Source: Escherichia coli | GTDB taxonomy: Bacteria; Pseudomonadota; Gammaproteobacteria; Enterobacterales; Enterobacteriaceae | Length of the DNA stretch: 64,000 nucleotides | Direction: 5' to 3' (one strand) | Assembly: GCA_025336685.1 (NCBI GenBank) | Contig: GCA_025336685.1_4717.1 | The notes under the pieces: model-generated | Told to the model about the DNA's origin: nothing | Databases searched by the model: none | The model's input: only the letters and a program-made list of their open reading frames with translations | Part shown: piece by piece, positions 31,959 through 54,482 of the stretch | How positions within the stretch are numbered: position 1 is the first letter of the stretch | Layout of the letters: each line of letters opens with the position of its first letter | Program-made: the position numbers and the translations under genes

Positions 31959-34127
31959 CTAGCTTTCGCAGTCATCTGCGTCGATGATTTGTCCACCGGC
32001 AACGTTCAGTTGATGATACAGAATCCTCAACGCACGGTTACCACCAATGGGATACTTCTCGAAGTTGGTCGCAATAGGAATCGCTGACGGCTTATCGGTC
32101 GCATAGATGCTTTCAGTGATGCTATCCACCTGTTTTGGATTGTTTGCATAGTCCATAAAGACGCTCGCAAACCACCCACCAGCAAAGGCGGTAACTTCGC
32201 GATGTTCAGATTCACCACAGTAACGAGTTGGTTGCTCTTTACCAGGAGAACTGTACTTATCGCTATTACTGAGTTTCGACGGTAATCCGTGCGCTTGCAG
32301 TTTAGGAATACCCACCGCTGACCAATCGTTCGCCGTCTTCTCCAACATCATGATGTACGTGTCACCGATCGCAATATCGTTCTTGGTTGTCCGCCACTGC
32401 CCAGAACGTCCGCGGTACCGTACAGGACCTTTCTTCAACGGGAACTCACGAATCAGATTCTCCATACGTTCTGAACCCGCTGCGATACTGTCTGTCGGGA
32501 TATAAACTTCCGTACCGTGGCGTTGTACGTACCGTAAATGATCCCATTTATCCTCATCCGTGATACAGTATTTTTCAACAACCTGTTCCACGAACTCAGG
32601 ACTGACGATATAGTAGTAGCGCATCAGTGTGTTCCAAGCGGTCTCCAGATCGCCTGCATCCATCACTGGTTTCAGCTCACGCATGATCTGGTCACCAACA
32701 CCGTTGATGTATGGCGCATTAACACGACTTAAACTCATCCTTTTGATTACCGTGCTATCGTCAAACATAAAGTCCGCAACGTTACCCCATTGGTCAACCG
32801 GCATTTCATCGTCTTCCATGATGTCGGTTACGACGAATTTATCACCCGCCATACCCGTGAATTTAAACCCGATACCTGGAACAACGTCATACGTGTACGT
32901 GATGGTCACACGCCAATCATCGAGATTCTCTTTACGGTAATCGCGGGTTGGTAATACATGACGTAGCTGTCCGTTAGGATTGCGGATATCAATACCGTGT
33001 TCAGCATCAGCCAGGTTCAACCACCACATCACCGTTTGATGATGACGTATCGGCGTACCAACGCGTTCACGTTCGTACTTACGAACAGCATCCTGAATTC
33101 GGGTGTAAAGCAAACCGATTGCGTTTTCATATTTCAGGAATTGACGATACGGAGGACGCATCTTCTCTTCCATCATAATCGCACGCTCGCGGGCTTGACG
33201 TCCAGAACGACGATGTCGATCGCTGACAACATCGATATCCGTTACACGCGCATTCGGTTCAGCGTAAGTGAGATCATCGTAAACATAATCCACGCGCTGA
33301 AGGTTACACGTCATCATGTCAACAACGCTGAGGATAGGATCTATTTCGCGTGTTGCTGCAAGCAACCCATCCTTACGAATGCGCTCACCGTTCTCGGGTA
33401 TTGCTTGGTATACTTCGTCATCACCGTAGAGATTGATTGGGTATCGCGATTTACCTGATGTAATTGTTCGCTTCTCAATACCAGTACTGGTGAAATGCTT
33501 CAATACACCGCGACGGGCAACGCCACCATCTTCAATACACTGGTAGAAGCTACCGAAACACACCTTGCAATCGCGACCGTAACCCCACTCACGTGTTTCT
33601 TGATTGATCGCTGGGCTTTCCATCAAACGAGAATATCGTGGTACGATCTGGCCTCGACGAAGGGAATGGAACAAGTTGGTTGGTCGAAAACGGAAACCGT
33701 ACTGCTGATGCATGATGTGATGCTCGGGCACTTCAAGCAAGCGTAGCTCGTGACGGTTACCATCCTCTTGGTTTTCATACAGCACGTAATGCATCGTGTT
33801 TGTTTTGATGCTGTTTGCTGTATGCCCTGGTTGAAACCGCGGAATGATATCTATGATGCGAGATTCAACTGGAAACTCTACTGACCAAGTGTTTTGTCCG
33901 TACTGGTATTCAATCCCCGTCGTTAGTCGGGACGGCTTCGCATCTTTGATAACCAACGCTTGGCTAAGATGTCCACCAAACATCGCAGCGCGCTGTGCTG
34001 AGTTATAATGCAATAGCCCGTTAAGTCCAGTCCCTACGCCAGTATACTCCTGTTTAATGGGAATGATTTTACCTTCAGCGATTGCCTGCTTCACAGATTC
34101 ATAAAGAGGTTTTTCTTTATAATGCAT
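31959..34127 (-). CDS. multisubunit RNA polymerase beta-like subunit, C-terminal module
   Basis: GDKFVVTDIMEDDEMPVDQWGNVADFMFDDSTVIKRMSLSR parallels beta GDKxAGRHGNKGV..EDMP..G.P.D..LNPLGVPSRMN; GESEHREVTAFAGGW parallels GEMEVWALEAYGA; ATG 34127 (MHYKEKPLY) with AGGAAG RBS instead of track start 34292. Confidence 0.65.
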   Translation of the reverse strand: MHYKEKPLYESVKQAIAEGKIIPIKQEYTGVGTGLNGLLHYNSAQRAAMFGGHLSQALVIKDAKPSRLTTGIEYQYGQNTWSVEFPVESRIIDIIPRFQPGHTANSIKTNTMHYVLYENQEDGNRHELRLLEVPEHHIMHQQYGFRFRPTNLFHSLRRGQIVPRYSRLMESPAINQETREWGYGRDCKVCFGSFYQCIEDGGVARRGVLKHFTSTGIEKRTITSGKSRYPINLYGDDEVYQAIPENGERIRKDGLLAATREIDPILSVVDMMTCNLQRVDYVYDDLTYAEPNARVTDIDVVSDRHRRSGRQARERAIMMEEKMRPPYRQFLKYENAIGLLYTRIQDAVRKYERERVGTPIRHHQTVMWWLNLADAEHGIDIRNPNGQLRHVLPTRDYRKENLDDWRVTITYTYDVVPGIGFKFTGMAGDKFVVTDIMEDDEMPVDQWGNVADFMFDDSTVIKRMSLSRVNAPYINGVGDQIMRELKPVMDAGDLETAWNTLMRYYYIVSPEFVEQVVEKYCITDEDKWDHLRYVQRHGTEVYIPTDSIAAGSERMENLIREFPLKKGPVRYRGRSGQWRTTKNDIAIGDTYIMMLEKTANDWSAVGIPKLQAHGLPSKLSNSDKYSSPGKEQPTRYCGESEHREVTAFAGGWFASVFMDYANNPKQVDSITESIYATDKPSAIPIATNFEKYPIGGNRALRILYHQLNVAGGQIIDADDCES

Positions 34128-34158
34128 AGGACTTCCTATTATCGAATTGAGGTACGTC

Positions 34159-34512
34159 ATGTCTAACACGCCCCTGAACGACTTTCTTAAGACAAACCCC
34201 GATGACCTCATCCACGATCTTGATTTCAGGAACGTTGTTGAGATGCATCTGGAATATTTCAAAAATGCCGGACTGGTCTCTACGATAGACATACCACCCG
34301 AACGCGCCTACGAATTCGATGGTAACTTTTATGGATTGTGTCGTGTTCTGCTCGGCGAGGGCAGTGAATCAATGCACTGGATCACCATGAGACTCAATGG
34401 TTATCGCGACCCTACGGAATACACCGCCGATGTTCTAACCATGAAGATTGTCGATACAAGCGCAATCAACACATTAAAACAACAGTACCGCACAATCCAC
34501 TACAGCGCTTAA
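34159..34512 (+). CDS. hypothetical protein
   Basis: Track start is TTG at 34147; ATG 34159 (MSNTPLNDF) has GAGG RBS; divergent from the beta-like gene. Confidence 0.45.
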   Translation: MSNTPLNDFLKTNPDDLIHDLDFRNVVEMHLEYFKNAGLVSTIDIPPERAYEFDGNFYGLCRVLLGEGSESMHWITMRLNGYRDPTEYTADVLTMKIVDTSAINTLKQQYRTIHYSA

Positions 34513-34517
34513 GATAA

Positions 34518-34546
34518 CCCTCCCACAGCGTAAAGCGTAGGGAGGG
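34518..34546 (+). terminator. hairpin CCCTCCC ... GGGAGGG followed by CATTTATGCCG
   Basis: 7-bp stem with 15-nt loop, 6 nt after the stop. Confidence 0.5.
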
Positions 34547-34577
34547 CATTTATGCCGTCGTTCGTTGGCTTAGCACA

Positions 34578-35858
34578 TCAGAAACGATTTACAGTACGTC
34601 CTGTCCATGCACTCAGGATGTTGTTACGTTCCATCTCAGCCCGACGACGTAAGCCGTTTGGTGACTGCGGTGCTTGCGGCATCCCCCACCCAGCAGGCTG
34701 CATACCCATACCAGGCCAAGCGGAATTATTGAACATCGTACCGTTACGTTCCGCAACACGATTCATTAATGTATCAAACGTGCTATTACCTGCCGGTTGA
34801 TTACCGCCGCTTTCCCATTGATTAGGTTGAACAGGTGTAGTTTTACCCAACAGGTTATCAATCACGTTACTCGTTGCAGCAGGACGCGGTTGCATGCCTT
34901 CATGTGCAGCTGCTGATGGATTTGGCTTAACCGTCGGCTGCGGACGACTGTTCAGCGTTACACCCATGTTGTATTTCGCTGGTGGAATCTGACCACGATG
35001 TTGGGTAATCGGCTCAAAATCCTCGACCCAGGTAACATCGCAATAACCGTTCTCTTTACCGTCGTACTTATCACCAAACAGTTTGATAAGATTGTTCAGC
35101 GGTTCCATCAGCTTCGCGAAGCTGTGGATAAGACAATCGAAATACGGAGCATGAGGATCGCTTGACCCAGCATTATACGTTTCACTTACCTCACCGGAGT
35201 GAGGGATAACGTACTCAACCAGGTTTCTCAGCATGTTAAGATCTTTCTTGGAAATCTCAACACCACACCAGTACGTTTTCTTATCTTTCGTGCTGATGTG
35301 TTCCTCTTCCATGAACGGGAAAGTAACTACCGCAACGCGGGTCATCTTCTTACCCATGTAGGTTGCGCCAGTACGACGAAGATAAATTTTAGACAACGTA
35401 TACGGTGTGTCACGTTTCAACCAAACGGTGACCAGTTTACCTAACGTCGTTAGCGTTTTATCGCTGGCATCCGCAAGGATATTGAAGAACTCTTTTTGCT
35501 TCGGTCCGAAACGTTTTGCTTCTTTAGGATTGATTGCGGTTTCAACCATCCAAATCAGCATGGAACACAGTGTGGCGTTAAAACGAACAACCATTGCACG
35601 ACGCAGGAACTGAAGTACTTCCGATTCACCATTCATCACGTCTTCACTTAGCGGATGGAACAGTACACGTTCGGCGAGTTGATTTCCGGTACGAACTTCG
35701 GGAACCGGCATCAGCAACGGCATGCTTTCCACGGTAGCGGCAACTGCAACAACTTTACCATCCCCATCTGTAAAACGATATTCTAATTCGTGGGCGTCAT
35801 TTTCAAAATAGTTAACGCTTTGCAGCGCTTTGCGATAAGCTTCAATAAGCTTCGACAT
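34578..35858 (-). CDS. hypothetical protein with Q/P/G/M/N-rich low-complexity C-terminal region
   Basis: 426-aa ORF, RBS AAGGAAA; C-terminal ~120 aa low complexity. Confidence 0.5.
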   Translation of the reverse strand: MSKLIEAYRKALQSVNYFENDAHELEYRFTDGDGKVVAVAATVESMPLLMPVPEVRTGNQLAERVLFHPLSEDVMNGESEVLQFLRRAMVVRFNATLCSMLIWMVETAINPKEAKRFGPKQKEFFNILADASDKTLTTLGKLVTVWLKRDTPYTLSKIYLRRTGATYMGKKMTRVAVVTFPFMEEEHISTKDKKTYWCGVEISKKDLNMLRNLVEYVIPHSGEVSETYNAGSSDPHAPYFDCLIHSFAKLMEPLNNLIKLFGDKYDGKENGYCDVTWVEDFEPITQHRGQIPPAKYNMGVTLNSRPQPTVKPNPSAAAHEGMQPRPAATSNVIDNLLGKTTPVQPNQWESGGNQPAGNSTFDTLMNRVAERNGTMFNNSAWPGMGMQPAGWGMPQAPQSPNGLRRRAEMERNNILSAWTGRTVNRF

Positions 35859-35906: not shown

Positions 35907-35913
35907 CTATGGA

Positions 35914-37500
35914 TTAGAAGTTGCCTTTGGTAGTTACCGCATCCACCAGGTTAAACAAATCAACACTCAGCTTGTAAACCTCCTGCTGACTACGGTTGAG
36001 CAGCGGGCTGTACGCGGATGGGTTGATGTTCGGCATGGTGTACGGAATCGGTGAAGAGCCGTCAACGCTGATCTTGAACTGGCTGTCCAGGAACAGGTTA
36101 ATCGCACCACTCACCATAACCGCGTTCGGGTTGTTACCCAACATGGAGGGCAGGATATTGGTAATCATGTCGGAACGCATCTGTTCAGCAGCGCGGTTAC
36201 AATCATACCCTTTAATGAACGGTACAGCGTCAGTAACCGCAACCGCCCATTGCCCAGGCATGATGCCTAGTTCTGGATGGCCGTGGTTATCAGCAATGAA
36301 ACGGAACGACTCCAACATGCGATACGTCATCGCAGCAGGCATCATCGCAGCAAGTGATGAACAATACAGCGTTGGATAATCGATAACGTCCCAGCTCTGG
36401 CTATCGGTCGGCATCCAACCAAACTCGGTGGTTGCCGATGTACCGCGACGAGCTTCCACGTACGGGAACAGTCTTAAGACATCACGGACATGCTCGCCGA
36501 ACATCCGTTTCATATCAGCCCAACTCAGGCTACCGCTGAAGGCGAATCCCTCATCACGCATAATCGCACCGAATACCGGATGCGCAACCAACGGTTCTTC
36601 ACGAACAGCTTGAGCTGCTTCTACGTAAATATCCTCATTCTCTGCGCTACCTGGATGAGACCCGCTTTCGTACGTCTGACGAATAGCCCCGACGTTATCG
36701 AAGGCTTTTCTTAGATAGATGGTTGGGATGTTCGTATCAGCACTCGCTGGTTTGATTTTCTCCGTTGCGAAACACATTGCTGCTTCCACACCACGAAAAA
36801 CCGGTTCCGGTTGCGATTGATAGGAAGAGCGATGAACCACATCAGCGTAGGCTGGATCGAACTGCTGCATCACGTTCTGCATGGCTGGGTCCATGAACTG
36901 GTTATCAAAACCACCATTGCCTACCCAACGTGCAGTCGACGCATAAGTCAGCGTATCCTGAACACGAGTACTGAACTGAACATCACGATTAACAGGGTCG
37001 TATGCGCCAGTCAAAAGGTTCGTTGCGTCCATCGGGGTCGCGCGAACGATTTGCTTACCGAACATATCCGTTGTGGTTGTTTCGGTTACCTGGATTACAT
37101 TCGTGAAGAAGAACACCAGTTCGTTCGGCAGATCGATGGCACGTGTTGTAAACGCATCGAGGCTTACCGAATGGTCGGTGTATCCAGAAATGTAATGGAC
37201 GCGCTTGGTTCCTGGTGCAAGGGCCAAGGATTCTTCCACAGCCATCATGAAATGGAAACGACGTGTGCCCCAACCATTCGCAATCTCCGAAACCCCCTCA
37301 GGTTCTGCAGACTGCTGTAACAAACCGGTTGCAAGCTTATTGATTGCTGATGGGGTTGTTGCCGTACCGAACTTCGTCGTGTTAATAAAGTCTTCGATGC
37401 TACGCATGCTATCTGCATGGAATCGTAGTGGACGACGTTGTACGTTGTTGTACGGTGCGGTTTCAACCATCAGTATTTCACGAACATTCATCGGGATCAT
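35914..37500 (-). CDS. hypothetical 528-aa protein
   Basis: Long ORF, no recognised motif. Confidence 0.5.
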   Translation of the reverse strand: MIPMNVREILMVETAPYNNVQRRPLRFHADSMRSIEDFINTTKFGTATTPSAINKLATGLLQQSAEPEGVSEIANGWGTRRFHFMMAVEESLALAPGTKRVHYISGYTDHSVSLDAFTTRAIDLPNELVFFFTNVIQVTETTTTDMFGKQIVRATPMDATNLLTGAYDPVNRDVQFSTRVQDTLTYASTARWVGNGGFDNQFMDPAMQNVMQQFDPAYADVVHRSSYQSQPEPVFRGVEAAMCFATEKIKPASADTNIPTIYLRKAFDNVGAIRQTYESGSHPGSAENEDIYVEAAQAVREEPLVAHPVFGAIMRDEGFAFSGSLSWADMKRMFGEHVRDVLRLFPYVEARRGTSATTEFGWMPTDSQSWDVIDYPTLYCSSLAAMMPAAMTYRMLESFRFIADNHGHPELGIMPGQWAVAVTDAVPFIKGYDCNRAAEQMRSDMITNILPSMLGNNPNAVMVSGAINLFLDSQFKISVDGSSPIPYTMPNINPSAYSPLLNRSQQEVYKLSVDLFNLVDAVTTKGNF

Positions 37501-37501
37501 T

Positions 37502-39088
37502 TTATTTTTTTCCTCTTAAATTTACTACATGTTCATTTAATCGAACAACTAATTGCACAAGCTGCTGACGGATATCTGCTGGGCAAAGCATCAATCCTTT
37601 ACGATCAGCTGGGACTTTCTCAAGGATTTCCGGACCTGCTGCGGAAACATCCCAATCCCATTCACAAAACGCATCAGCCACCATGTTAATACCGACAACC
37701 GGTAAAGTTGTACGTTCATCTTCATACATGGCATGCGGATACAATTTATTGACGGTAATGACCTCCTGTGGTTTTAACTGATGGATAATCTGGTAAACGT
37801 CGTCGCGTTTAACCTGGATACCTACGGTCAGCGCAGCCAGTTGAGGAAAACCCCAATGGTCTAATAAGCACGCTGCGATTGCTAACGCTTTTGCCTGATG
37901 TACGGCTTCAATCGGTGATAGACTTCTCGCTGGAAGATGACTATCAAGCAACCATTGTGCCAATGCTCGGCATCCACGGTTGATTGGTTTTAACTCAATG
38001 CTGTCATCATGTTTAGCGTAGGTGTATCCGTCGTAACGTTTTGCGATACGCGCATACATGTCTTCAACTTTACCGTAAGGTGCTGTTTCGTCGACGTCAT
38101 GCAACACCCGTTCCATCTGGGTAAGATACGCGATATCAAGGATGAGTACGCGTGGTGAACGTTTATCTTTCACCATCAACGCATCAATCACGCCTTGACT
38201 GTCTTCATCTTGCGCATTCCCTCGCGGCGTTTTCTCGCGAATCGGTCCGCTGAAACGTCGTTCCGTACAAAGGTTATTCACATAGCTAAAGATCAACGTT
38301 ACCAGGTGCGTACAACTCACCAACACTCCATCTTTAACGACAGGCTGTACGGCTTGGTCCAAATCGCGTACTGCGAGACGGCGAACGATGGCTTGTGAAC
38401 GCAACCAACCAGGTACTTTCTCTGTCGACATGTAATCCACCGTCATCGACAGCGTGATCTTTTTATCGCCTGTCTGTGCACGGATATAATCTTCCAGTCG
38501 GTCGTAAGCAGCGATATCATGAATGCGTGTTTTATACATCAACGACATAGCCACTTCTTCTTTACGTACCGTCCCGTACGTTTTCCCTGCGTCAATCAGA
38601 AACTCCGCCCAAATCGGCACCATCAGCCGGACGTAGATCGCTAACGCCGTTAACTCAACGTAATCGTTTCGTAAATAGGTTTTCTCAGGTATGTCATCCT
38701 CACCTAATGTTGTTTTCATGTCTGGCGGTAATTTTACCCAACCTGGGGTATTACACAACGCCAGAATCTCTTCATAGACGATCGGTTTGTAAATTTCACC
38801 GACGGCGCGGCTCAACTCCTCCATTTGTTGCTGTGGAGCAATGTAGTTATCCATCGCTTCACGTGCTTTAACGAACCCTTCGAAGATGTCGTCGATTCGA
38901 CGTGGGTTCTTTTGTTCTATCCAAGCGAGATACTTATTAATCTCTCGCATCTGATTGCTAGCCATATCCCCATCAATCTTGATGTAGCCTTGGCCTGAAA
39001 ATTCCACGGCACGTCCGTCACGATGTTTGATGAGATAGTGATCCAGCTTTTCTTTGCCTTGCGTCGTAATGACGGGCACAATGTGCAT
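37502..39088 (-). CDS. hypothetical 528-aa protein
   Basis: Long ORF preceded by a 240-nt structured leader with promoter-like motif. Confidence 0.5.
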   Translation of the reverse strand: MHIVPVITTQGKEKLDHYLIKHRDGRAVEFSGQGYIKIDGDMASNQMREINKYLAWIEQKNPRRIDDIFEGFVKAREAMDNYIAPQQQMEELSRAVGEIYKPIVYEEILALCNTPGWVKLPPDMKTTLGEDDIPEKTYLRNDYVELTALAIYVRLMVPIWAEFLIDAGKTYGTVRKEEVAMSLMYKTRIHDIAAYDRLEDYIRAQTGDKKITLSMTVDYMSTEKVPGWLRSQAIVRRLAVRDLDQAVQPVVKDGVLVSCTHLVTLIFSYVNNLCTERRFSGPIREKTPRGNAQDEDSQGVIDALMVKDKRSPRVLILDIAYLTQMERVLHDVDETAPYGKVEDMYARIAKRYDGYTYAKHDDSIELKPINRGCRALAQWLLDSHLPARSLSPIEAVHQAKALAIAACLLDHWGFPQLAALTVGIQVKRDDVYQIIHQLKPQEVITVNKLYPHAMYEDERTTLPVVGINMVADAFCEWDWDVSAAGPEILEKVPADRKGLMLCPADIRQQLVQLVVRLNEHVVNLRGKK

Positions 39089-39330: not shown

Positions 39331-40119
39331 TTAGAACGCTAAGCCATCAAAGGCTACAGACGGATCATCGTCGTCATTTGCGCTTGGTGCATCCCAACGG
39401 GTATCAGGGGCAGCTGGGGCCGAACGTGATGCGTTAGAGTTACCGTTGTACTGGCCGTTACCAGCATTACGGTTACCGCCGCCGTTATTATTGTTGCGAT
39501 TATAGCTGTTGTTGCCATTACTTACGCTACGGCTCTCACCATCGAAATTGGTTGCGAGGATGCTTGGCAACACAGCACGATGGATGCGTACGAATTCCAA
39601 TGCACAAAGCGGAGAAACAACCCCGATCTGCAACGGTTGCCCAGACTCATCAACCAGAGAGTGGAAACGTGGTGGTTTGAATACGAACTGGATGTTTGGT
39701 TTCTGGTATGCTGTTACAGCGATGTATACCGAACCATCATCATTCTTACCAACCCATGTTGTACTTTCGGTAATCTGTTTCTTCTTACCTGGGTTATTGC
39801 GATCATCAATAACCTTTTCGTTCTTCATCGCAAAGCGTTGACCTGGTTTACCCTTAGCAACCTGCTCAAGGATCGCAAGCAGGTTGTAGAACGCGTATGA
39901 ACTCATGCGTGCCCAAATGCTTTCAGCGCGACCCTGCTGGTCTTTACGACCTGTATAAACCGTGATACGCGGTTGATTCTTAGCAACGCTAATTTTCAGT
40001 GAGGGGACCGAATTGCCACCCTCAACTTTTTCGTCCGCCCACAGTTTCCAGTTGTTGTCGTCGTAAGCCGTAGGAATAATGTTTCCTTGTGGTTTACTAC
40101 CCGAATTCCAATTGCTCAT
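39331..40119 (-). CDS. possible ssDNA-binding protein
   Basis: Globular N-terminal ~190 aa, N/G-rich linker (NGNNSYNRNNNNGGGNRNAGNGQYNGNSN), acidic C-terminal tip DDDDPSVAFDGLAF resembling an SSB tail. Confidence 0.4.
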   Translation of the reverse strand: MSNWNSGSKPQGNIIPTAYDDNNWKLWADEKVEGGNSVPSLKISVAKNQPRITVYTGRKDQQGRAESIWARMSSYAFYNLLAILEQVAKGKPGQRFAMKNEKVIDDRNNPGKKKQITESTTWVGKNDDGSVYIAVTAYQKPNIQFVFKPPRFHSLVDESGQPLQIGVVSPLCALEFVRIHRAVLPSILATNFDGESRSVSNGNNSYNRNNNNGGGNRNAGNGQYNGNSNASRSAPAAPDTRWDAPSANDDDDPSVAFDGLAF

Positions 40120-40192
40120 TTTCAGCCTCGTTACGTAGTGTGCATCAATTTCTGGTTCAGATGATTGTCAATATTAGTTAAAAATTACAGCC

Positions 40193-40990
40193 TCAGCGGA
40201 ACATGTCCAACAGAAAACGTTTTGCGAAGGGGTCGCGTAACTGGTTGACACCAAAGCGTGTACGGTCTTCCGTTGTTAACGGATTCCACTGACTCTGTTT
40301 CGCAAGATCTAACAGCATCCTTTTTATTTTCACCGGTCCGCTGTTAAACTGTACGGCTTGGTCACCGAACGTTCCCAATGTCATCTTTGTAAATGGGAGG
40401 TTCGCAACCTCTGGACGATCCCCACCAGTAAGTTTGGTTGACCACTGATGTTTTCGTTTCAAAGTTCCGGTATGACTCTCTACCAAAATAAGTTCACCAA
40501 AACCGGTTCTTGCCAACAAGTCAGAAACATAGTGCGTGGTGATATACGATGTTTTGGTTATCGTGGGTAATTTACAATCCATCGATTCGATATTAGGGAG
40601 TCGATCTACAGACGCCATCAACCCACGATAAAGTGTAGCGAGTCCTTTTTGTTTTTCGGTATGTGGCTCCTTGTGTATAGCGTGCGGATAAACACGCTTT
40701 ATTGATGCATAGGTTGGCGCATATATCCGCAAACGAATATGGGGAACGAGTTCATTCACCAACTGCCTTAGCTGCAGCAACTCGTTTTGAAAATCCCCCG
40801 TTATCATCGATAATGGTAATTTATGTTGCTCGACGTCTTCAAAGCTTTCAACAAAATTGCGCGCTAAAGTACGCAGGTTGAACAACCAATCCATCGGTGT
40901 TTCTGGCTGTTGCTGTACTGCTGATAATGTTGCTGACGTCCCCACCGATAAAGGATAATCACCTAGCGTGCGGGCGTACATATCGCTCAT
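40193..40990 (-). CDS. hypothetical protein
   Basis: Track start 41026 is TTG; ATG 40990 (MSDMYARTLGDY) preceded by AAGGAG. Confidence 0.45.
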   Translation of the reverse strand: MSDMYARTLGDYPLSVGTSATLSAVQQQPETPMDWLFNLRTLARNFVESFEDVEQHKLPLSMITGDFQNELLQLRQLVNELVPHIRLRIYAPTYASIKRVYPHAIHKEPHTEKQKGLATLYRGLMASVDRLPNIESMDCKLPTITKTSYITTHYVSDLLARTGFGELILVESHTGTLKRKHQWSTKLTGGDRPEVANLPFTKMTLGTFGDQAVQFNSGPVKIKRMLLDLAKQSQWNPLTTEDRTRFGVNQLRDPFAKRFLLDMFR

Positions 40991-41009
40991 ACCCCACAAC
41001 TCCTTCTTA

Positions 41010-42152
41010 TCATGGCAACGTATCAAGCCAAGCAGAAACCTTTAAGGCATCAACGTTCGGGTATTTATTACGGATGCGTTCGACCAACAAACGCTTAACG
41101 TTGTCCTTTGTCAAGTCCCCACCCTTCTCGATAACGTTATTGACAAAACTGTTCTTTAATAGCGACTGGTTGTTCTTGGCATCCGTTTTAATTGACCAGA
41201 CAAAACCTGGATACAAAGAAGGGATAGAACGAAACGTTTTCGCTGCGTCGTCTTCCTTATCGCAGCGTATTCGAATATGATCGCCCTTCTTCAATGGAGC
41301 CAATTCCCGTTCCAACACACGGACAATTTCATCTCCAACAAGACCATGCAGTTTTATCGTCTTGTAGACATCTGCTTTCTTGTTCTCAACAAATTCCCAT
41401 TGGTCGTTAAACGATTCTGTTAACGTATAACGGAGGTACCCCTTTGGACCTTCTTCGCCATGCGACAAGCGACCGAACGAACCGCCAACCATGATACGTC
41501 CTTTCTGGGATTGTAAGTGAATATGTCCGCTCACAATCCATCCCTGGGTCTTCTCCACCATTGCGTTATACGCATCACTGCTATGAACACATGTCGCTTT
41601 TAACGCTTCTGGTGGAAGCTGATATTCGAACGCACCGTGCATCAGAATGAAGTCCGGCGATCCCTTCTCATCAATAAGTCGGTTCACGGCTGACAACGTC
41701 ACATCCGGGTCGTGGCTGTAGTTATCTGGAAGATAAAGTACTTTTAAACCAAAGTCTTCATCAACCATGCAGAGGTCATCGTAATAACGAACTTTCGCTC
41801 CTATCTCCATGACCTCGTTCTGCTCAACGAACCACTGGCTTTGCTTCTGGTCGTGTAAATTGGTACCCTCAAGAAAGATCAATGTAATATCGTGTTTTCT
41901 CGCATACCGTAACAACCAGGTACCCCAAGCACGAACAGCAACCACGTCACTCGTTACAAACGTCGTAATACGATCGAAGACATCACCACTGAACGTAATC
42001 ACGTCAAGCAGCGCAGGATCTTCTTTGGTGATGTAATAACGTAGCTGGTTAATCAGGTTTACTGTTGGTGTTTGACGATGGATAAAGTGAATATCCGACA
42101 AATTGATTCCACGTAATACCCCAGGCGTTTTATTTCGACTGAAGTCTCGCAT
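41010..42152 (-). CDS. calcineurin-like metallophosphoesterase, Mre11/SbcD-like nuclease candidate
   Basis: Motifs LSDIHF, GDVFD, GTNLHD, MHG, SGHIH. Confidence 0.6.
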   Translation of the reverse strand: MRDFSRNKTPGVLRGINLSDIHFIHRQTPTVNLINQLRYYITKEDPALLDVITFSGDVFDRITTFVTSDVVAVRAWGTWLLRYARKHDITLIFLEGTNLHDQKQSQWFVEQNEVMEIGAKVRYYDDLCMVDEDFGLKVLYLPDNYSHDPDVTLSAVNRLIDEKGSPDFILMHGAFEYQLPPEALKATCVHSSDAYNAMVEKTQGWIVSGHIHLQSQKGRIMVGGSFGRLSHGEEGPKGYLRYTLTESFNDQWEFVENKKADVYKTIKLHGLVGDEIVRVLERELAPLKKGDHIRIRCDKEDDAAKTFRSIPSLYPGFVWSIKTDAKNNQSLLKNSFVNNVIEKGGDLTKDNVKRLLVERIRNKYPNVDALKVSAWLDTLP

Positions 42153-45365: not shown

Positions 45366-46004
45366 TTAACCTAATTTACCACCGGCGATATTGGTGAAAT
45401 CTTCGCCATCAGGAACTTGCAGTAGAATACGTGCCATGTCCCAGTTGGTTAATGTGATTGCTTTATCATCGATACTCAGTTCTGGTAGGTCGAGTTCATG
45501 ATCATCAAACTCGTAGGAAATACTCCACGTTTCATCTGTTTTAGGATCCGTCATCAATACACCGTCTGTCACACGCATGTAGTCCGGATGCAGTTCATTA
45601 CTGAACGTACTGAACGGATCGGTGTAACATTCAGCATACCCCTCGATCTGCTGACGCTGTGCCTTCGTACGTAATTCAGGGCACGCCATGATCAGTTGTC
45701 GAGATATGCCGTTTGCAGCACGGAAGTCTTCCACAGTGTTACATGGCATAACCACATCGTCATGGAAGATGTTCTCCGATTGTCTCAACAGCGTCTTACG
45801 GAGTTCAGCATAGTTTATCTGATTGAATGCATCGAACGTTGCTAACGATTCAGCGTAAAAATGCTTTACGTGTTCGCTTGCGCCACCGAGACTATTCATC
45901 AACTTATGGCCGTACTCCATAAAGCTTTTATCGAGACCGGAGGACATTTCTCCGAACCTCAGTGCACGATAACTGTCTCGTCCACCTGTAAATATTTGCG
46001 CCAT
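45366..46004 (-). CDS. hypothetical protein
   Basis: 212-aa ORF; AGGAGG RBS directly after the upstream stop. Confidence 0.5.
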   Translation of the reverse strand: MAQIFTGGRDSYRALRFGEMSSGLDKSFMEYGHKLMNSLGGASEHVKHFYAESLATFDAFNQINYAELRKTLLRQSENIFHDDVVMPCNTVEDFRAANGISRQLIMACPELRTKAQRQQIEGYAECYTDPFSTFSNELHPDYMRVTDGVLMTDPKTDETWSISYEFDDHELDLPELSIDDKAITLTNWDMARILLQVPDGEDFTNIAGGKLG

Positions 46005-46019: not shown

Positions 46020-46257
46020 TTAGCAATGGTTGTTAGTTGCTTCTATTTCATCAAGATACGGTTCTACGTCATCGCCCTCCACGAATTCGTTGAACCAACA
46101 GTCAATGGTAGAAATAACCGGTGACTGGTGTTCACATTTCTTAGATACCTTAAAAGGCACGTTATTATCCATCATACCGAGTTCGGGTCGAAAACGCCCG
46201 AAATGTTTCGCAGTCCAAATGTCTGGGACGATATGGTTGTTCATCGCGTCCCCATCG
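46020..46257 (-). CDS. RNA polymerase beta-prime-like N-terminal subunit, exon 2
   Basis: Starts with codons for DGDAMNNHIVPDIW, the continuation of NADF|DGD; ends at stop 46020. Confidence 0.75.
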
Positions 46258-47669
46258 CTTCAGTTTAATTTGGTCGAACGTATTCCAATTTCAATCCATG
46301 CCAATCACCGCCTTTACTAATAGCGGTACTTATCGTAGTCGGATGCACTTTATGTTCTTCAGCAAGGGCGAATCTATCAGGATAGACTTTATGTGTACCA
46401 TCCTCAAACACCACCTTTACTGGGAACCTTTGTAATCCACCAGTTTTTGGTCTAGGCTCTTTAGGAATATATTTACATTCGTTCACATCGCCAGGATAAT
46501 TCCTTGTCCACCATGCTTTCCAACCGTTTCTGGAAAACATCTTATCTCCATGACATAAGCTATGACTTAATGTCGCATAGCTCACTCCCACCATTGTTGC
46601 CGCCATTACGGTACTTTCCATGTGATACTTGTCTCCATCGGGCGATATTAAAACCAACCCGCCGTAAATAACATACGACTTACCGGCATCTTCGGATGTG
46701 AAACCGACAAATTCCATTCCGTGGGTAGCCGCATCGTAATATTTCATCAACGGCCATTGTCGTGTAGTACGGAACCATTTTGAAATCTGGGTGTGTGGGA
46801 TACCGTAACACTTAGCCGCATCGCGCATACTGTAATGTTCGGTTATCTCGCCAGTTCTCAAATCCTTTATCCATACTGTTTTAGCTTTCCAGTTCAAGCC
46901 CGTACGATAGGCATGGTACGTATTTTGGGATTGACTCGTCCATTCAAGATTATCCAAGCGGTTGTTATCTTTAACTCCGTCAAGATGGTTACCTACTAAC
47001 ATTGATCCCTCAGGCAGCATAGGTTTTTCACGAAAGGTGGATAAAACAACATGATGAGCTGCTATATCTCTACCTTCATGTCTGACCCTTACATATCCTA
47101 ATACGTTAGTTTTTCCTACTTCCTCTCCAGTATAGGCATCTATAATGACACCCTCCACAGAAGCGGCAAGTCCGGGATAATCTTTACAATGGTAAAATCC
47201 TGGGAATTTTGTCTCTCTAAGTTTCATCTTCTCTCCGCTATCGGCCAACAGAGAGAAAACGTTCCTCGGAGGCCGACGTTTTCAAATTAAACTACGTTAT
47301 CGACTATATCTTCATCCTCATTGCGAGGAGTCTCCCGTTTGGGTCTGTGTTTAACAGAGCCTACTCTACTCGACATCGCGTCTTTCGATAGTCTGTGAGC
47401 ACACATCTTAACGAACATTCGTGGACTCCTAAACAGGTGAACATTCTTGTTAAGATGCTTCGCTGCGGGTTATTCCCGTCCTACCTCTTTTACCATACCC
47501 AGTTCATTACGCTGGCCCTCATCTATGTCGCCACGATGAGTTGGTGTGTAGTCCGATTACAGAAACTTCCCGTCAATTAGAGAGTTTTAACTATGTTCCT
47601 GTTACCAGAAACCCGACTCCGATGATATCAATAAATCAACGTAAGTTATTGATTTAATTGAAGAAACTG
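46258..47669 (-). other. group I intron (1412 nt) in the RNAP beta-prime-like gene
   Basis: 5' splice after U (GCCGACUU|CAG); candidate IGS GAGUCGG pairs with exon CCGACUU including a U.G wobble; P AAUUGACGGGAAG, Q AAUAACCCGCAGC, R GCUCACAGACUAUCGAAAG, S GAAGAUAUAGUCGA all in the first ~400 nt; 3' end ...CUGAAG with terminal G. Confidence 0.8.
46265..47227 (-). CDS. HNH homing endonuclease encoded in the 3' part of the intron
   Basis: HHVVLSTFREKPMLPEGSMLVGNHLDGVKDNNRLDNLEW (HNH core); track start 47248 is TTG, ATG 47227 has GGAGAG RBS. Confidence 0.8.
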   Translation of the reverse strand: MKLRETKFPGFYHCKDYPGLAASVEGVIIDAYTGEEVGKTNVLGYVRVRHEGRDIAAHHVVLSTFREKPMLPEGSMLVGNHLDGVKDNNRLDNLEWTSQSQNTYHAYRTGLNWKAKTVWIKDLRTGEITEHYSMRDAAKCYGIPHTQISKWFRTTRQWPLMKYYDAATHGMEFVGFTSEDAGKSYVIYGGLVLISPDGDKYHMESTVMAATMVGVSYATLSHSLCHGDKMFSRNGWKAWWTRNYPGDVNECKYIPKEPRPKTGGLQRFPVKVVFEDGTHKVYPDRFALAEEHKVHPTTISTAISKGGDWHGLKLEYVRPN

Positions 47670-48925
47670 AAGTCGGCATTGTATCCCTTAAGGATCATCA
47701 CGCTTAACCCGATGGTGTTATCCTGCGGATCGCGTTTAACCTTGGTGATTTCAAGACATTGGTTACTGCTTCGGTCAAGTGATGGGTTTCGAACAAAACC
47801 ACACACAATCCCATCGAACGGTGTATCGGCAATAAGCTCATCGTGTAGCTCGCTCATCATCGGGTGGTAATTACGGACATGTTCCGCAACGAACGCACGT
47901 GCTGCTCTTGGTGAATAACCACGATGGAATAACTTGGATTGGATGTGTTCTTTATTGGTTAATGTAAATGGCGCGTATGGGAAATGCAGATGATAATAAC
48001 GATGGTTCGCTGTTATCGAACTGATTACGGTACGCGTGGTGAATGGGTGTAATGTACCTAATATGTTTTTACGCGTGATACCTTTCTTCTTACCGATGAA
48101 CTCATCGAAAATCGCCGAGTGGTACTGCAGCAGCTTCAGTTGTACTTTCGCCATCCAGTTTTCTTTCTTTCTGGCGCTCAAAGGTGTTGTTGGGTGATAG
48201 ATACTATTCAATGTGCCGATAGCATCGATCGCACCTTCCATTTTGCTATCTGCATAACGGCCGGTCGGTGTATTTTCGATAACGAACATCATGGCCGCAG
48301 GAAAGCTGATATACTGGCTGAAGAACTTATCACGATGGATACGGATGAATTCTCGTAGCGTGTCAACTTTCTCTGTGTTCTTCGGTCCACGTAACGTAGG
48401 TCCTTTATACAAGATCTCCATGATGCGATCGAAGTTCTGTATAAAGCTATTTACGCCACGTCGTATCCCGAATACATCGAATTGCTGCTCCAGATAGTTC
48501 TTGAGTTCGATGGGTCGTTTTACATTTGGACGGTAACTGGCATCAATGAGCCACGTCATCGTTTCGAAGCTTTTGATATTCAACTCGCTTGCCAGCACGA
48601 GATGGACCAACGGGTTAATGAACGCATCGATTCCTTCAGGGACACGCGCCCAGACCGTCGAACGAATCTCCTGTTCTGCTGGGTAGGTCACAACCGTTTT
48701 ACAGTTTGGACACACCGTGCCGAGCAGCTCACCACGATTGTAAAAACCGCATCCACATTGCGGTGTGATATCCAACGTATCGCTGGAGTAAACACGGGTG
48801 ATAAAACTGTTTAATTTCTTCTTCTCTTCGACGACTTTTGTATCGTAATCGTTCAACAAAATCGGCGTAAAGGGAAGTTCTGCGAGCTGTCTATCGAAAC
48901 TCACGATATCGAGCATGATGGCCAT
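47670..48925 (-). CDS. RNA polymerase beta-prime-like N-terminal subunit, exon 1
   Basis: Zinc-ribbon CGCGFYNRGELLGTVCPNCK; C-terminal ...IGLSVMILKGYNADF parallels bacterial ...LHPLVCAAYNADF; the ORF reads through into the intron as SFFN-stop. Confidence 0.8.
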
Positions 48926-49017: not shown

Positions 49018-50913
49018 TTAGAACAGGTTGAATGCCCCACCCATGTTGTTACCGCCAACATTCGGACGATCGCTACGTGCATAGATGTTGCCGGAGATGT
49101 TACCCAGACCACGAGCACGTGCTGCTGTGTTACCACGAACAGCGGTACCTGCCAGATGCTGGATGTTCTCAGGACGGATGGTGAAGCCAGCTTCGGCAGC
49201 CGCTTCAATCAATGCCGCAAGCGCATTCGGTTCGAAATCGTAACGCATTGCCCAACCGGTTTGTTCCCAGCTACCAGACAGAACGCGATCGATGATTTCG
49301 TGACGAGCAACAACACGCTGAGACATCGACATATCGGTACGGTCGAAGCTGTCTTCCCAAGCTTCTACGGTATCCGGGTTAGTGATGTTCATCATGTACA
49401 GATCGTCCATATCACGAATATCGTGACGGTGGCCATCCTGGTGGTTGTAGTGACCCAGCGGGATACGGTTACCGGTAGCGTACACTAACGGCTGGCCGTA
49501 TTGATATTTCTTGCTGAAGCAACCCAGGGTGGTATCATCGAATGCACGATAGAGTGCTTTATAGCCTTCGGAGATTTCTTGAACTTTACCGTCAACGTTG
49601 CCCGTAAAGATCTTCTCAGCTGCAGGGATCATACGCAGCAACCAGCTATATTCACCTTCTTCCGGTACATCGATAGAAATCAGCAGAGACGGATACAGTA
49701 CCTGTTGCAGGAACTTGTAAATCTGCTCGTTGGTTTGAGTAGACAGATCCAGCGGTGCGGTAACTTCCGGATCCAGTACCATTGCCAGAGCACCCGGGTT
49801 ATGAGGACCGATGCCACGAGCAGCGTTGCTGATTAAAGACTGTGCCCACGCCATACCGCTGTTCAGCGTAGCGATGGTACCAATCAGACCTAACACGAAA
49901 GTGTTCGGAGTGAACGCATCCAGCTCCAGCGGGTAAGCGCTGGTCATCACGTAACGCGGCTGGTATTGTACAGTCGGCGGTACCGGATAACCGTTAACCA
50001 GAACAGGACCTTGGTTGAAGGTCGGGTTCTGCGGGCTGTAGGTCAGGTCAATGTAACCAGTGGTTGCGACCAGGCGCTGTTGACTATCGTAATCGCTCAT
50101 CGCTTGACGGATACGGTTAGAGATAGTTACAGTGATGTCAGAACGTACTGGGTTACCGACGATATCGCTGTCCTGCATACCGCTGGTGTTGTACTGAACG
50201 CTGCTGATCGGCTGATCGCTTGCCATCATGCCCAGGTTGAACTGCGGCAGGCCCAGTTTATCGCCGAGACGGATTTCGATCGCGGTTTGGATTGCGTTAT
50301 CTGCAGCAGACAACAGGGTGGTTGCCAGATGTGCAGATTCAGCGGTGATTTCATTGGTCACCACAGCCAGACCGGCGATACGAACAGTACCATTAGCCTT
50401 ACCACCAATAGCCGCATACATTGCCGCCATGACTTCGTTGATGAACGTGCCGTTCAGGTTATCAACCCAGGTACGTGGTACCAGAATGTTACCATGCGGA
50501 CCTTGTTCTTCACGACGCGGCAGCGGAGCCAAACCGGCAACCAGCGGAAGCACATAACCGAAGAAGTGGTTATGGTCACCAACTTTTGCACCGCTCATAA
50601 CAACCAGGGTCGGATACGGTACACTGTACTGGTTAGGATCGACGGTCACCATGATGAAGTCGTCTTTGAATCCTTTATCTTCCAGTTCTTTTTCCATCAG
50701 ACGGCGGAGATTCAGTACCTGCTCGGAGCCAGTATTACGGCTAATACGACGGCTCAGTGTACGGTTGATCGTACGCATCGTATGAGTTACTTTAGGCTGG
50801 CCAGCAAAATCTGCAGCGGTTTCCAGCGCCTCATCAGCACGTTGTGCGGTGCGGGTTTCAGCTGCACGAATTTCTACATTATCGTTACCGTTATTACGTA
50901 CGTCTAAGCCCAT
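49018..50913 (-). CDS. 631-aa protein, candidate nuclear-shell protein (chimallin-like); function inferred only from size, promoter and position
   Basis: Long ORF with AGAGGAA RBS, promoter-like motif upstream, immediately upstream of the beta-prime-like gene; I recall a similar arrangement in phiKZ. Confidence 0.45.
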   Translation of the reverse strand: MGLDVRNNGNDNVEIRAAETRTAQRADEALETAADFAGQPKVTHTMRTINRTLSRRISRNTGSEQVLNLRRLMEKELEDKGFKDDFIMVTVDPNQYSVPYPTLVVMSGAKVGDHNHFFGYVLPLVAGLAPLPRREEQGPHGNILVPRTWVDNLNGTFINEVMAAMYAAIGGKANGTVRIAGLAVVTNEITAESAHLATTLLSAADNAIQTAIEIRLGDKLGLPQFNLGMMASDQPISSVQYNTSGMQDSDIVGNPVRSDITVTISNRIRQAMSDYDSQQRLVATTGYIDLTYSPQNPTFNQGPVLVNGYPVPPTVQYQPRYVMTSAYPLELDAFTPNTFVLGLIGTIATLNSGMAWAQSLISNAARGIGPHNPGALAMVLDPEVTAPLDLSTQTNEQIYKFLQQVLYPSLLISIDVPEEGEYSWLLRMIPAAEKIFTGNVDGKVQEISEGYKALYRAFDDTTLGCFSKKYQYGQPLVYATGNRIPLGHYNHQDGHRHDIRDMDDLYMMNITNPDTVEAWEDSFDRTDMSMSQRVVARHEIIDRVLSGSWEQTGWAMRYDFEPNALAALIEAAAEAGFTIRPENIQHLAGTAVRGNTAARARGLGNISGNIYARSDRPNVGGNNMGGAFNLF

Positions 50914-51010: not shown

Positions 51011-51167
51011 AATATTGGTGTAACCGCATTGAACGATATAAACCCCTAGGCGAACGCTGCCGAGAAGCAACATTCTTTCTACATATAATCAGGATATGTC
51101 TGTAAACTTTTACTTCTCTTATTGAGAGTAATGTCATATCCGTTTACCATCTTCTTACGGAGTTCGT

Positions 51168-52262: not shown

Positions 52263-52281
52263 CCACCTCCTTCTTTCCACG

Positions 52282-52313
52282 CATCCTCCCAACCCGTAAG
52301 GGAAGGGAGGATG
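52282..52313. terminator. hairpin CATCCTCCC ... GGGAGGATG between convergent genes
   Basis: 9-bp outer stem plus inner CCC-GTAA-GGG. Confidence 0.45.
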
Positions 52314-52328
52314 GGGTGGTGGGTTATG

Positions 52329-54482
52329 TTATTCTGCGGTTTCTTGCTTCGGTAAATAACTTGCTGCGATGTCTTGGGCCAACAATGTATTGTTTTTATT
52401 CGAGATGAAAATACCGTAACTTTCCATTAACGCATAATACGAACGAACGAGCGTAGAGATCAGTCGACGAATATCCATACCTTGAATAAAGATATCAGGA
52501 AGCCCGGAGGCTTCGATCACCGGTAATGGTATCGTTAAGTTGCTTATCGTTTTCTTATCGTTACGTACAATCCAATCACGGAAACGTTGTTGTAACCCTT
52601 TATCCTCCCATGAATCAATCCAATCATTAAGAAGCGTTTTGTTCTTCGTCGCCAGCGGTACACGAACCCCAACATAAGGCGGTTCAGAGCAATGGCCGTA
52701 CGATTGAGCAAACACCTCTTCCCACATATCGTAAGACTGTTTCGTTACTGCAACATGTGGTTTCACTTTAACACGTGTTAAGAAATCGGGGTCACCTCGT
52801 TTCATTGACTCAACGATTTCGTTTTCTAACGAGATGATATCATCAAGAACCAATCGAATACTGATCTTCTCGTTACGTAACAGCTTATCCATGATACCAC
52901 ACATCATCCGCTCAACACGTTGGACGATCATCTTCGGCGCTGATGCGTCGCGCATAACAGGGCCTTTCAATTCCAGCTTCGGTGGATTGATAGGAACCCC
53001 TTCACGCATGGTCATGTATCCGTAATAGTTTTTACCCATCGAGGTTAACGACAGGATTAAGAACATATATTCGTTCTTCATCTCCATTACGTACATATGC
53101 TCTTTCGCTACACCGATATTACCAGAACACATCGCCATCAGATGAACCGTAATCTGCGTAACCAGATAGATAAGCGTGTTTGCTAAGCGCGTCGAAATTG
53201 GATTGATCTCCATATTTCCAAATCGCCACTGAACCCACTCCTGGCAGGTAAACACCGTCGAGTCGGTATCAGACAACACACCCACTTCACGGATTGCCGA
53301 CGGAAAAGCATAAACGCCTGCCGGTTGGTTCTCGGTACGCCATAACGCCTTAATTAAATCAGCGTAGCTTTGGATGCGTTGCAGCATTAATTTTGTCGTT
53401 GCTGCAGTAAGACGATAACCGAGTTCATTTCCTTTTTCTAGCGCTACGTAAATCGCTTCCCCGTTCAAGAACTCCGTGCATTGTGCTGTAATCCAAGCTA
53501 CCGTGTTGTTATCCATGGAAGCAATAATGGCTTTAGCCTCTTCCATCGTTTCAACAGGTTCGGATGCCAGTTCACATAACGAGTCAAGAAAATCTCGAAC
53601 AAATTCAGGATTAAGCTCACGTAACGAGTACAGGTTATTGCTGTACATGTAGCAGGCACGTTCCAACGGCGTTAAACCGGTAATTAGCTCCCGGATGGTC
53701 AGCTCTTTCTCTGGGTCGAAAGTATACCGATGTAAGCATTTCGATACGTTAGCCCAAACCTCTTCCGGCGTAGGGTAATGCAGTTTGTATTTTACCATTA
53801 CCTGCTCAATGGCTTTACGATCGCTGTTACGGACAATACTCACGATGTTTTCAATTGCGATATCACAATCGTAATAATGGAAATTACCCGCAAGGAAGCG
53901 TTCGTTGTTCGCATTGGCTGAACCTGAAGCACAGCGACATGTTGTCGTTAGACTCGGATGCGCGATCGGATTGTAAAATGGGTTAAACTTGGACGCTTGG
54001 GTTCCTGACAAGCTGTTGTTATCTAACTTGGTGTTGGTTTGTCGTTTATCGTGTAACTCAGCTTCGTCTTTACGTCCGTGAGCTTGCGCTATCGACATTT
54101 GTTTCTTCTGTTTCTTACGCAACTTACCGTTTTCAACCGCAAAGTCGCTTAGCACACTGGAACGTGTTTCACGTGGATAACAGTTAGCCCATACCGGCGT
54201 GATAATTAAATTATTTTCTTTAATATCGTTGAAGTATTGGCTGAACTTGATGACTTCTTTTTCTCGGTTTCCTTCAGTACGCTGTGTTAGTACAAGGCAG
54301 TCGGGATCAACCATCCCGTATTTTCCACCAGGACTAACCGTATCAAGAACAAACTGCAACGCTTCCTGCTGAGAAATCCCACGCATGCGCATTAAGAACA
54401 GGGTATAATCCTGTACCGCTTCTTTGGTCATATCCAACGTACGGCCATATCCGTTTTCATCGTAAAAGAACGGATTTTCCAT
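52329..54482 (-). CDS. hypothetical 717-aa protein
   Basis: Long ORF, GGAGG RBS; no confident motif. Confidence 0.55.
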   Translation of the reverse strand: MENPFFYDENGYGRTLDMTKEAVQDYTLFLMRMRGISQQEALQFVLDTVSPGGKYGMVDPDCLVLTQRTEGNREKEVIKFSQYFNDIKENNLIITPVWANCYPRETRSSVLSDFAVENGKLRKKQKKQMSIAQAHGRKDEAELHDKRQTNTKLDNNSLSGTQASKFNPFYNPIAHPSLTTTCRCASGSANANNERFLAGNFHYYDCDIAIENIVSIVRNSDRKAIEQVMVKYKLHYPTPEEVWANVSKCLHRYTFDPEKELTIRELITGLTPLERACYMYSNNLYSLRELNPEFVRDFLDSLCELASEPVETMEEAKAIIASMDNNTVAWITAQCTEFLNGEAIYVALEKGNELGYRLTAATTKLMLQRIQSYADLIKALWRTENQPAGVYAFPSAIREVGVLSDTDSTVFTCQEWVQWRFGNMEINPISTRLANTLIYLVTQITVHLMAMCSGNIGVAKEHMYVMEMKNEYMFLILSLTSMGKNYYGYMTMREGVPINPPKLELKGPVMRDASAPKMIVQRVERMMCGIMDKLLRNEKISIRLVLDDIISLENEIVESMKRGDPDFLTRVKVKPHVAVTKQSYDMWEEVFAQSYGHCSEPPYVGVRVPLATKNKTLLNDWIDSWEDKGLQQRFRDWIVRNDKKTISNLTIPLPVIEASGLPDIFIQGMDIRRLISTLVRSYYALMESYGIFISNKNNTLLAQDIAASYLPKQETAE

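Follow-up and report, generated by a model that had tools for sequence, protein, structure and literature searches.

The chmA-nvRNAP block of a Goslar-like jumbo phage encodes four of the five nvRNAP subunits, with β-N very probably at a separate locus

The 64-kb stretch of DNA analysed here (the window) belongs to a close relative of the nucleus-forming jumbo phage Goslar (Chimalliviridae; Escherichia phage vB_EcoM_Goslar, NC_048170), to which it is 95.4% identical at the nucleotide level across 95% of the region. The gene order is the same in both phages, the Goslar counterparts being gp164-gp176 and gp247-gp244, and small indels elsewhere in the window set the two apart. A synteny comparison shows that the region also follows phiKZ gp54-gp75 gene for gene, with the same order and presumably the same five-subunit composition of the non-virion RNA polymerase (nvRNAP; phiKZ structures 7OGP, 7OGR, 8QUE, and 9RJS in the PDB). 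The pairwise alignments made with phiKZ proteins show an identity of only about 22-30%. A conserved block consisting of chmA, nvRNAP, ChmC, gp63, and gp64 genes has been described before (PMC11077065). The features of the block in the window are listed in Table 1.

Table 1. Annotated features of the block, with coordinates in the 64-kb window and the basis of each assignment
Feature	Coordinates	Strand	Basis
Superfamily 2 helicase (phiKZ gp75 position)	26304..27878	-	PHROG 16 'DNA helicase' E=6.9e-26; Goslar annotation 'DNA helicase'; phiKZ synteny
nvRNAP β′-C (phiKZ gp74 homolog), 668 aa	27875..29881	-	PDB 7OGP chain D E=1.1e-86; PHROG 3015 E=2.6e-169
nvRNAP β-C (phiKZ gp71-73 homolog)	31959..34127	-	PDB 7OGP chain C E=1e-85; PHROG 3295 E=2e-180
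phiKZ gp70 homolog, nucleus-associated	34578..35858	-	BLASTP vs phiKZ gp70 E=7e-25; PHROG 3520
PicA / Imp1, phage-nucleus protein import factor (phiKZ gp69, PhiPA3 gp63, Goslar gp174), 528 aa	35914..37500	-	Homology, synteny, published genetics
Sigma-like fifth nvRNAP subunit (phiKZ gp68 homolog; Goslar gp175), 528 aa	37502..39088	-	PDB 7OGP chain B / 9RJS chain B; PHROG 3209; phiKZ gp68 position
ChmC / Imp6 (phiKZ gp67, Goslar gp176), nucleus-associated RNA-binding protein	39331..40119	-	BLASTP vs phiKZ gp67 E=4e-20; Goslar gp176 at same position
SbcD-like nuclease subunit (phiKZ gp65 position)	41010..42152	-	PHROG 100 E=1.8e-41; phiKZ synteny
phiKZ gp59 homolog (Imp3, import factor)	45366..46004	-	BLASTP vs phiKZ gp59 E=9e-13
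nvRNAP β′-N exon 2 (phiKZ gp56.1 position), predicted, begins DGD	46020..46257	-	Exon join
Group I intron (predicted boundaries), 1412 nt, with HNH homing endonuclease ORF 46265..47248	46258..47669	-	Rfam RF00028; HNH_3 Pfam match; PHROG 59
nvRNAP β′-N exon 1 (phiKZ gp55 homolog), predicted to end NADF	47670..48925	-	PDB 7OGP chain A (PHIKZ055) E=4.1e-62; PHROG 2987 E=3.4e-117; splice site read from sequence
Chimallin ChmA, phage nuclear shell protein (phiKZ gp54 position)	49018..50913	-	Pfam PF25677 Chimallin_Phikzvirus E=6.8e-28; PHROG 4795 'nuclear shell protein'; annotated in Goslar
Divergent family B DNA polymerase (Goslar gp244 ortholog), 717 aa	52329..54482	-	Pfam PF20286 divDNApol E=1.7e-203; PHROG 2927 'DNA polymerase' E=2.5e-205

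The original prediction recognised β-C, β′-N, and β′-C in the window, and all three are indeed present, matching chains C, A, and D of the 7OGP structure, respectively. Residues 475-656 of β-C align with residues 1063-1241 of the Escherichia coli β subunit. This protein is probably 722 amino acids long and starts at M56 of its 777-residue open reading frame, as the match to PHROG 3295 begins at residue 79 and gene calls give 722 aa both for Goslar and for Logan contigs. The β-C gene is uninterrupted and intronless here, unlike its phiKZ counterpart, in which gp71 and gp73 are separated by gp72.

The β′-N gene, on the other hand, appears to be split by a group I intron with an HNH open reading frame, an arrangement that it shares with phiKZ (gp55/gp56/gp56.1). 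The match to Rfam RF00028 (positions 47281-47660) scores 50.3 bits, barely over the gathering score of 50. The intron boundaries were predicted from the sequence by placing a U before the 5′ splice site and taking a G as the last intron base. This puts the intron between NADF and DGD, and its removal restores the catalytic NADFDGD motif: the two exons join into a single 497-aa frame that contains YNADFDGDAMN and has one terminal stop. The HNH endonuclease inside the intron sets the window apart from Goslar, being only 29% identical to Goslar gp186, and a nucleotide search of the phage collection with its gene returned no match.

Three large proteins near the RNAP genes had been described as lacking assignable motifs, and their open reading frames, of 717, 528, and 528 codons, lie where the original prediction placed them, all on the minus strand. 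The description fails for the 717-aa protein, which is covered from end to end by the Pfam family PF20286 (678.2 bits, the cut-off being 25.7; residues 9-705 on profile positions 3-704 of 705). It carries a DTDS motif at residue 405, and its Goslar ortholog is named 'DNA polymerase' in RefSeq. A sequence search of the PDB with this protein gave no match to any solved polymerase structure, which is consistent with the divergence of the PF20286 family. The gene for this replicative polymerase flanks the block on its upstream side, a short way past chmA. For the two 528-aa proteins the description is correct at the Pfam level only, where neither has a match, but each can be traced to clear homologs whose role is known.

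The first of these, encoded directly upstream of picA, is the homolog of phiKZ gp68. It matches PHIKZ068 (7OGP and 9RJS, chain B) with E-values of 2.4e-28 to 3.1e-28, its residues 23-518 aligning with residues 20-517 of 521, and PHROG 3209 with an E-value of 1.1e-67. In phiKZ, gp68 is an integral, sigma-like subunit that is needed for promoter binding, and five proteins co-purify as the active enzyme, a result obtained for phiKZ only (PMC8287921).

The second 528-aa protein is assigned as PicA/Imp1 from its sequence homology, its conserved gene position, and published genetics. It shares 98.7% identity with Goslar gp174, matches PhiPA3 gp63 over 98% of its length, and aligns with phiKZ gp69 over residues 4-522 (BLASTP, E=7e-17). 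These three proteins are the PicA orthologs of the respective phages (PMC11087766). Goslar gp174 has been both localised and knocked down: it gathers in a punctum on the nuclear shell, and cargo import depends on it (PMC11087766). The genomic context agrees, in that the gene resides in a ChmA-encoding genome, is flanked by homologs of gp67, gp68, and gp70, and is positioned directly downstream of the gp68-like gene, as in Goslar, phiKZ, and PhiPA3, to whose PicA proteins the homology extends over the full length. Nothing of note distinguishes this copy from that of Goslar, and it represents a strain variant of a characterised protein. A PDB sequence search with PicA returned no match (best E=0.14), and a word-indexed protein search, whether run with the single sequence or with an alignment, recovered only three close relatives. 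The AlphaFold2 model of a PicA homolog, computed from a four-sequence alignment, had a mean pLDDT of 36.7 and a pTM of 0.31 and was judged unusable. The two 528-aa proteins are not paralogs: BLASTP aligns them with an E-value of only 0.049 over 54 residues, which is no detectable similarity, and their equal length is a coincidence.

Other genes of the block encode further nucleus factors. Imp3 is gp59 of phiKZ (bioRxiv 10.1101/2024.03.27.586873), ChmC of Goslar is gp176 (PMC11077065), and gp64, the PhiPA3 homolog of gp70, has been described as shell-associated (PMC11077065).

The gp68-like gene and picA are tightly juxtaposed. The TAA stop codon of the former is followed by one base and then by the ATG of the latter, and an AGAGGA ribosome-binding site is embedded in the end of the upstream gene. 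It is conceivable, but in our estimation unlikely, that this arrangement couples the synthesis of the two proteins and thereby ties nvRNAP assembly to PicA/Imp1-dependent nuclear import. According to the abstract of a 2026 preprint (bioRxiv 10.64898/2026.09.21.753271), Imp1 is necessary for the import of the nvRNAP, and this import is linked to interactions between the subunits, so that only translational coupling would be new.

The window was searched for the one nvRNAP subunit that had not been recognised, β-N. Neither tblastn with phiKZ gp123 (best E=0.75) or Goslar gp039 (best E=0.12) nor a hidden Markov model built from two β-N sequences found a β-N homolog in the 64 kb, in agreement with the original prediction. 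In Goslar, phiKZ gp123 matches positions 39951-41621 (tblastn, E=4e-49), which identifies gp039 (39.8-41.6 kb in a genome of 237 kb) as β-N. Goslar gp039 in turn matches chain E of 7OGP with an E-value of 1.2e-40. The gene adjoins the major head gene of Goslar in the context helicase, head protein, gp122, and gp123 that is also found in phiKZ, and it is about 113 kb away from the nvRNAP cluster. The closest relative, IMGVR_UViG_3300011560_000001, which shares 98.3% identity with the window over the PicA region, carries a 99%-identical β-N about 117 kb from PicA. Of the two locations that had been suggested for the missing partner, one outside the window therefore agrees with what is found in the relatives, and these relatives, at 95% and 98% identity, suggest that the remainder of this phage's genome carries β-N as well. 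The β-N gene is similarly unlinked from the other nvRNAP subunit genes in phiKZ, and in Erwinia phage RAY β subunit 1 of the nvRNAP is gp002, the other subunits being gp223/248/249. A β-N locus that stands apart from the other subunit genes is the normal arrangement of the family, and nothing is missing from the block.

The lack of β N-terminal signatures noted in the original prediction is borne out. No stop-to-stop segment of at least 150 aa in any of the six frames of the window contains GPGGL, PEGPN, or the relaxed variants GP.GL and PEG.N. This test is uninformative, however, because a genuine β-N, that of Goslar, carries neither GPGGL nor PEGPN, and a search for these motifs could not have detected it. 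In phiKZ gp123, the only motif remnant is GPTGL at residue 518, a trace of the fork-loop motif that Goslar gp039 does not retain. Furthermore, neither protein has a match to a Pfam RNA polymerase domain. The supposition that β-N is extremely divergent was thus sound, and the features of the N-terminal part of bacterial RpoB (GPGGL, PEGPN, and the Pfam Rpb2 N-terminal domains) do not define the phage β-N family.

Combining these findings, we propose, with a probability of about 94%, that this is the conserved chmA-nvRNAP block, carried here by a nucleus-forming jumbo phage of the Goslar type, and that it encodes four of the five nvRNAP subunits, with β-N located in a separate locus. In this model, the block would supply β′-N, β′-C, β-C, and the gp68-like sigma-like subunit of a phiKZ-type nvRNAP from genes interleaved with those of ChmA, Imp3, ChmC/Imp6, PicA/Imp1, and the gp70-like protein, and the phiKZ gp123 homolog would be found beside the major head gene, as it is in Goslar and in the closest relative. 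The proteins are expected to work as their phiKZ and Goslar orthologs do: the gp68-like subunit would form an integral part of the core and be needed both for binding promoters and for the formation of an active polymerase, and PicA would license the passage of proteins through the ChmA shell into the phage nucleus.

Three other readings were weighed. This phage might have lost β-N and rely on a four-subunit enzyme or on a host-derived part, for which the empty 64-kb window could be adduced. We consider such a loss very improbable: the window amounts to only about 27% of a genome of Goslar size (237 kb), an intact β-N that is 99-100% identical is present in all three of the Goslar-like contigs retrieved with the β-N query, tblastn with phiKZ gp123 finds a homolog in 279 phage records, and RNAP subunits belong to the core gene set that chimallin-encoding phages conserve (PMC10299810). 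Less credible still is the other location originally suggested, namely that one of the three large proteins is a cryptic, extremely divergent β-N module. The position of the 528-aa genes between RNAP subunit genes, their size, which is close to that of phiKZ gp123 (543 aa), and their lack of Pfam matches speak for it. However, each of the three proteins has a distinct counterpart of its own (gp68, gp69/PicA, and PF20286), a clear and separate β-N exists in the relatives, hhalign gives a probability of 0.1% for a match between the PicA and β-N alignments, and gp68 fills the sigma position rather than the β lobes in the cryo-EM structure of the phiKZ enzyme (PMC8287921). Two of the three are hence unrelated to RNAP in function; the third is an RNAP subunit, albeit not β-N. 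Finally, chimalliviruses carry two split RNA polymerases (PMC8287921, PMC10299810), but the idea that the window holds the virion set, with a different expected partner, is most improbable, as all three subunits match the chains of non-virion 7OGP (gp55, gp71-73, and gp74; E=4e-62 to 1e-86) and their genes are within the gp54-gp75 synteny block.

The genes of this locus are strain variants of ones that have already been studied experimentally in Goslar and phiKZ. Its content is known, and its significance beyond correct annotation is slight. Two practical consequences follow for the annotation of the family: bacterial RpoB motifs are unusable for finding the β-N subunit of chimallivirus RNA polymerases, and, as these phages always encode β-N apart from the other non-virion subunits, a partial window can be expected to lack it.

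The three large ORFs among which the original prediction sought the β N-terminal part (β-N) of the non-virion RNA polymerase (nvRNAP) exist at the sizes given. They encode a DNA polymerase, a gp68-like subunit and the phage-nucleus import factor PicA, which leaves none of them as β-N. Nor are they without assignable motifs, as had been stated, since the 717-aa protein is recognized by profile search and both 528-aa proteins have clear orthologs. The surrounding 22.5-kb region is 95.4% identical, over 95% of its length, to Escherichia phage vB_EcoM_Goslar, a nucleus-forming jumbo phage of the Chimalliviridae with a 237,307 bp genome in which ~121.6-185.6 kb is the counterpart of the window. The gene order equals that of phiKZ gp54 to gp75, and exactly such a conserved block, uniting chmA and the nvRNAP subunits with ChmC and a pair of proteins associated with the shell, has been described (PMC11077065).

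Features of the window, with their place in the minus-strand gene order
Feature	Coordinates	Basis	Order
Chimallin	49018..50913		1st
β′-N with intron and HNH ORF (first ORF)	47654..48925	gp55 match, E=4.1e-62	2nd
Small genes			3rd
SbcD-like nuclease			4th
gp66 homolog			5th
ChmC/Imp6	39331..40119	phiKZ gp67 homolog, E=4e-20; Goslar gp176	5th
gp68-like nvRNAP subunit, 528 aa	37502..39088	PHIKZ068 homology	5th
PicA/Imp1, 528 aa	35914..37500	Goslar gp174 / phiKZ gp69 homology	5th
gp70 homolog	34578..35858		5th
β-C (longest ORF)	31959..34292	gp71-73 match	6th
β′-C	27875..29881	gp74 match, E=1.1e-86	7th
Helicase			8th
gp59/Imp3 homolog	45366..46004
DNA polymerase, 717 aa	52329..54482	Pfam PF20286

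About 189 bp of Goslar (corresponding to 38722-38911 of locus L001) are absent from the window at ~58334. Goslar also has a 2076-bp NAD-dependent DNA ligase gene annotated at coordinates roughly matching window 1-4000, where the longest ORFs are of 210 and 325 aa only; judged from this annotation and these ORF lengths, the two sequences may not be alike at that end, or their coordinates may be shifted.

The 717-aa protein matches PF20286, "Divergent Family B DNA polymerase", end-to-end (E=1.7e-203, 678 bits) as well as PHROG 2927, contains DTDS as a motif (residue 405), and has as its Goslar ortholog gp244, named DNA polymerase in RefSeq. It is no subunit of an RNA polymerase. A PDB sequence search with it returned no match, consistent with the divergence of the PF20286 family.

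The gp68-like protein aligns with PHIKZ068 (E ~3e-28, residues 23-518 against 20-517 of 521), which is present in the cryo-EM structures 7OGP, 7OGR, 8QUE and 9RJS of phiKZ nvRNAP, and its gene occupies the gp68 position of the phiKZ order. In phiKZ, gp68 is built into the nvRNAP as its fifth subunit and takes the place that σ has in the bacterial enzyme; it contacts gp71-73 and gp55 and is needed for active enzyme formation and promoter binding (PMC8287921). One of the three proteins is therefore an RNA polymerase subunit, yet not β-N. Its gene ends with AGAGGAAAAAAATAA, followed by one base and the picA ATG (window 37498-37520, minus strand), a stop/ATG spacing that suggests translational coupling.

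The PicA protein is 98.7% identical to Goslar gp174, matches PhiPA3 gp63 over 98% of its length and aligns with phiKZ gp69 (residues 4-522, E=7e-17), all three of which are PicA (PMC11087766). On the nuclear shell PicA is seen as one punctum, and its knockdown arrests nucleus maturation in Goslar (PMC11087766); a second group named it Imp1, which binds gp67/Imp6 (bioRxiv 10.1101/2024.03.27.586873). No similarity was found to its equal-sized gp68-like neighbour or, by hhalign, to β-N profiles (probability 0.1%). Structure prediction gave no usable model because the alignment was too shallow; the assignment stands without one.

The β-C assignment follows from the match to chain C (gp71-73) of the phiKZ nvRNAP structure 7OGP (E=1e-85) and from the alignment of residues 475-656 with E. 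coli β 1063-1241. At the N-terminus of the longest ORF (777 aa), an extension of 55 codons (window 34128-34292) lacks homology and overlaps the position of the plus-strand Goslar gene gp172; the true start is probably M56 at 34127, which would make the protein 722 aa long, the length called in Goslar and in metagenomic contigs. The β-C N-terminus (…NSAQRAAMFGGHLSQALV…) seems to resemble the bacterial segment DDANRALMGANMQRQAVP of E. coli; if this likeness holds, β would be split after the fork-loop region. Whereas phiKZ β-C is split by an intervening ORF (gp71/gp72/gp73), it is uninterrupted here (31959-34127), and intron occupancy thus differs between the two phages.

The first β′-N ORF ends in YNADF followed by four read-through codons, a group I intron lies at 47281-47660 (Rfam, 50.3 bits), and the next in-frame segment starts with DGDAMN. 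With splice boundaries assumed from sequence (last exon base U47670, last intron base G46258), removal of a 1412-nt intron yields a 497-aa product containing YNADFDGDAMN, the same layout as phiKZ gp55/gp56/gp56.1. The HNH homing endonuclease ORF within this intron (46265..47248, minus strand) is only 29% identical to Goslar HNH gp186 at the same site; the phage collection gave no nucleotide match to it (window 46247-47296), and the flanks are 94-96% identical to Goslar. The endonuclease ORF looks to have been replaced inside a conserved intron. A Logan ERR12247764 contig (L011), which also encodes an identical gp68-like protein, has at the same NADF/DGD site (2100-2845) a ~730 nt intron free of an endonuclease ORF that does not reach the Rfam gathering score. 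Given ORF-less and differing HNH introns, at least three intron states circulate among Goslar-like phages.

As to β-N itself, GPGGL and PEGPN are indeed absent from all long reading frames of the window, as are the relaxed GP.GL and PEG.N. Goslar gp039 also has none of the four, GPTGL at residue 518 is all that is left of them in phiKZ gp123, and Pfam finds no RNA polymerase hit in either. As these are genuine β-N proteins, a bacterial motif search could not work, and the suspicion of extreme divergence was correct. Searches of the window with phiKZ gp123 (best E=0.75), the Goslar β-N ortholog and a small β-N profile found nothing. Against the phage collection, gp123 matched Goslar 39951-41621 (E=4e-49, 96% coverage), the location of gp039 (598 aa, annotated "polymerase"), which matches 7OGP chain E (E=1.2e-40). 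Goslar and phiKZ share the context, in this order, of a DnaB-like helicase, the major head protein, a gp122-like gene and gp123 or its homolog. IMGVR_UViG_3300011560_000001 (237,533 bp), whose PicA region shares 98.3% identity with that of the window, has a 99% identical β-N ~117 kb from that region. The suggestion that β-N lies outside the window thus held, and we infer that the unseen remainder of this genome would carry it, as in the 95% and 98% relatives. On this reading the RNA polymerase set would have no part missing, and all findings on the window are already known. In Erwinia phage RAY, nvRNAP β subunit 1 is gp002 and the remaining subunits are gp223, gp248 and gp249; together with Goslar, phiKZ and the IMG/VR contig, this arrangement makes an unlinked β-N the norm of the family.
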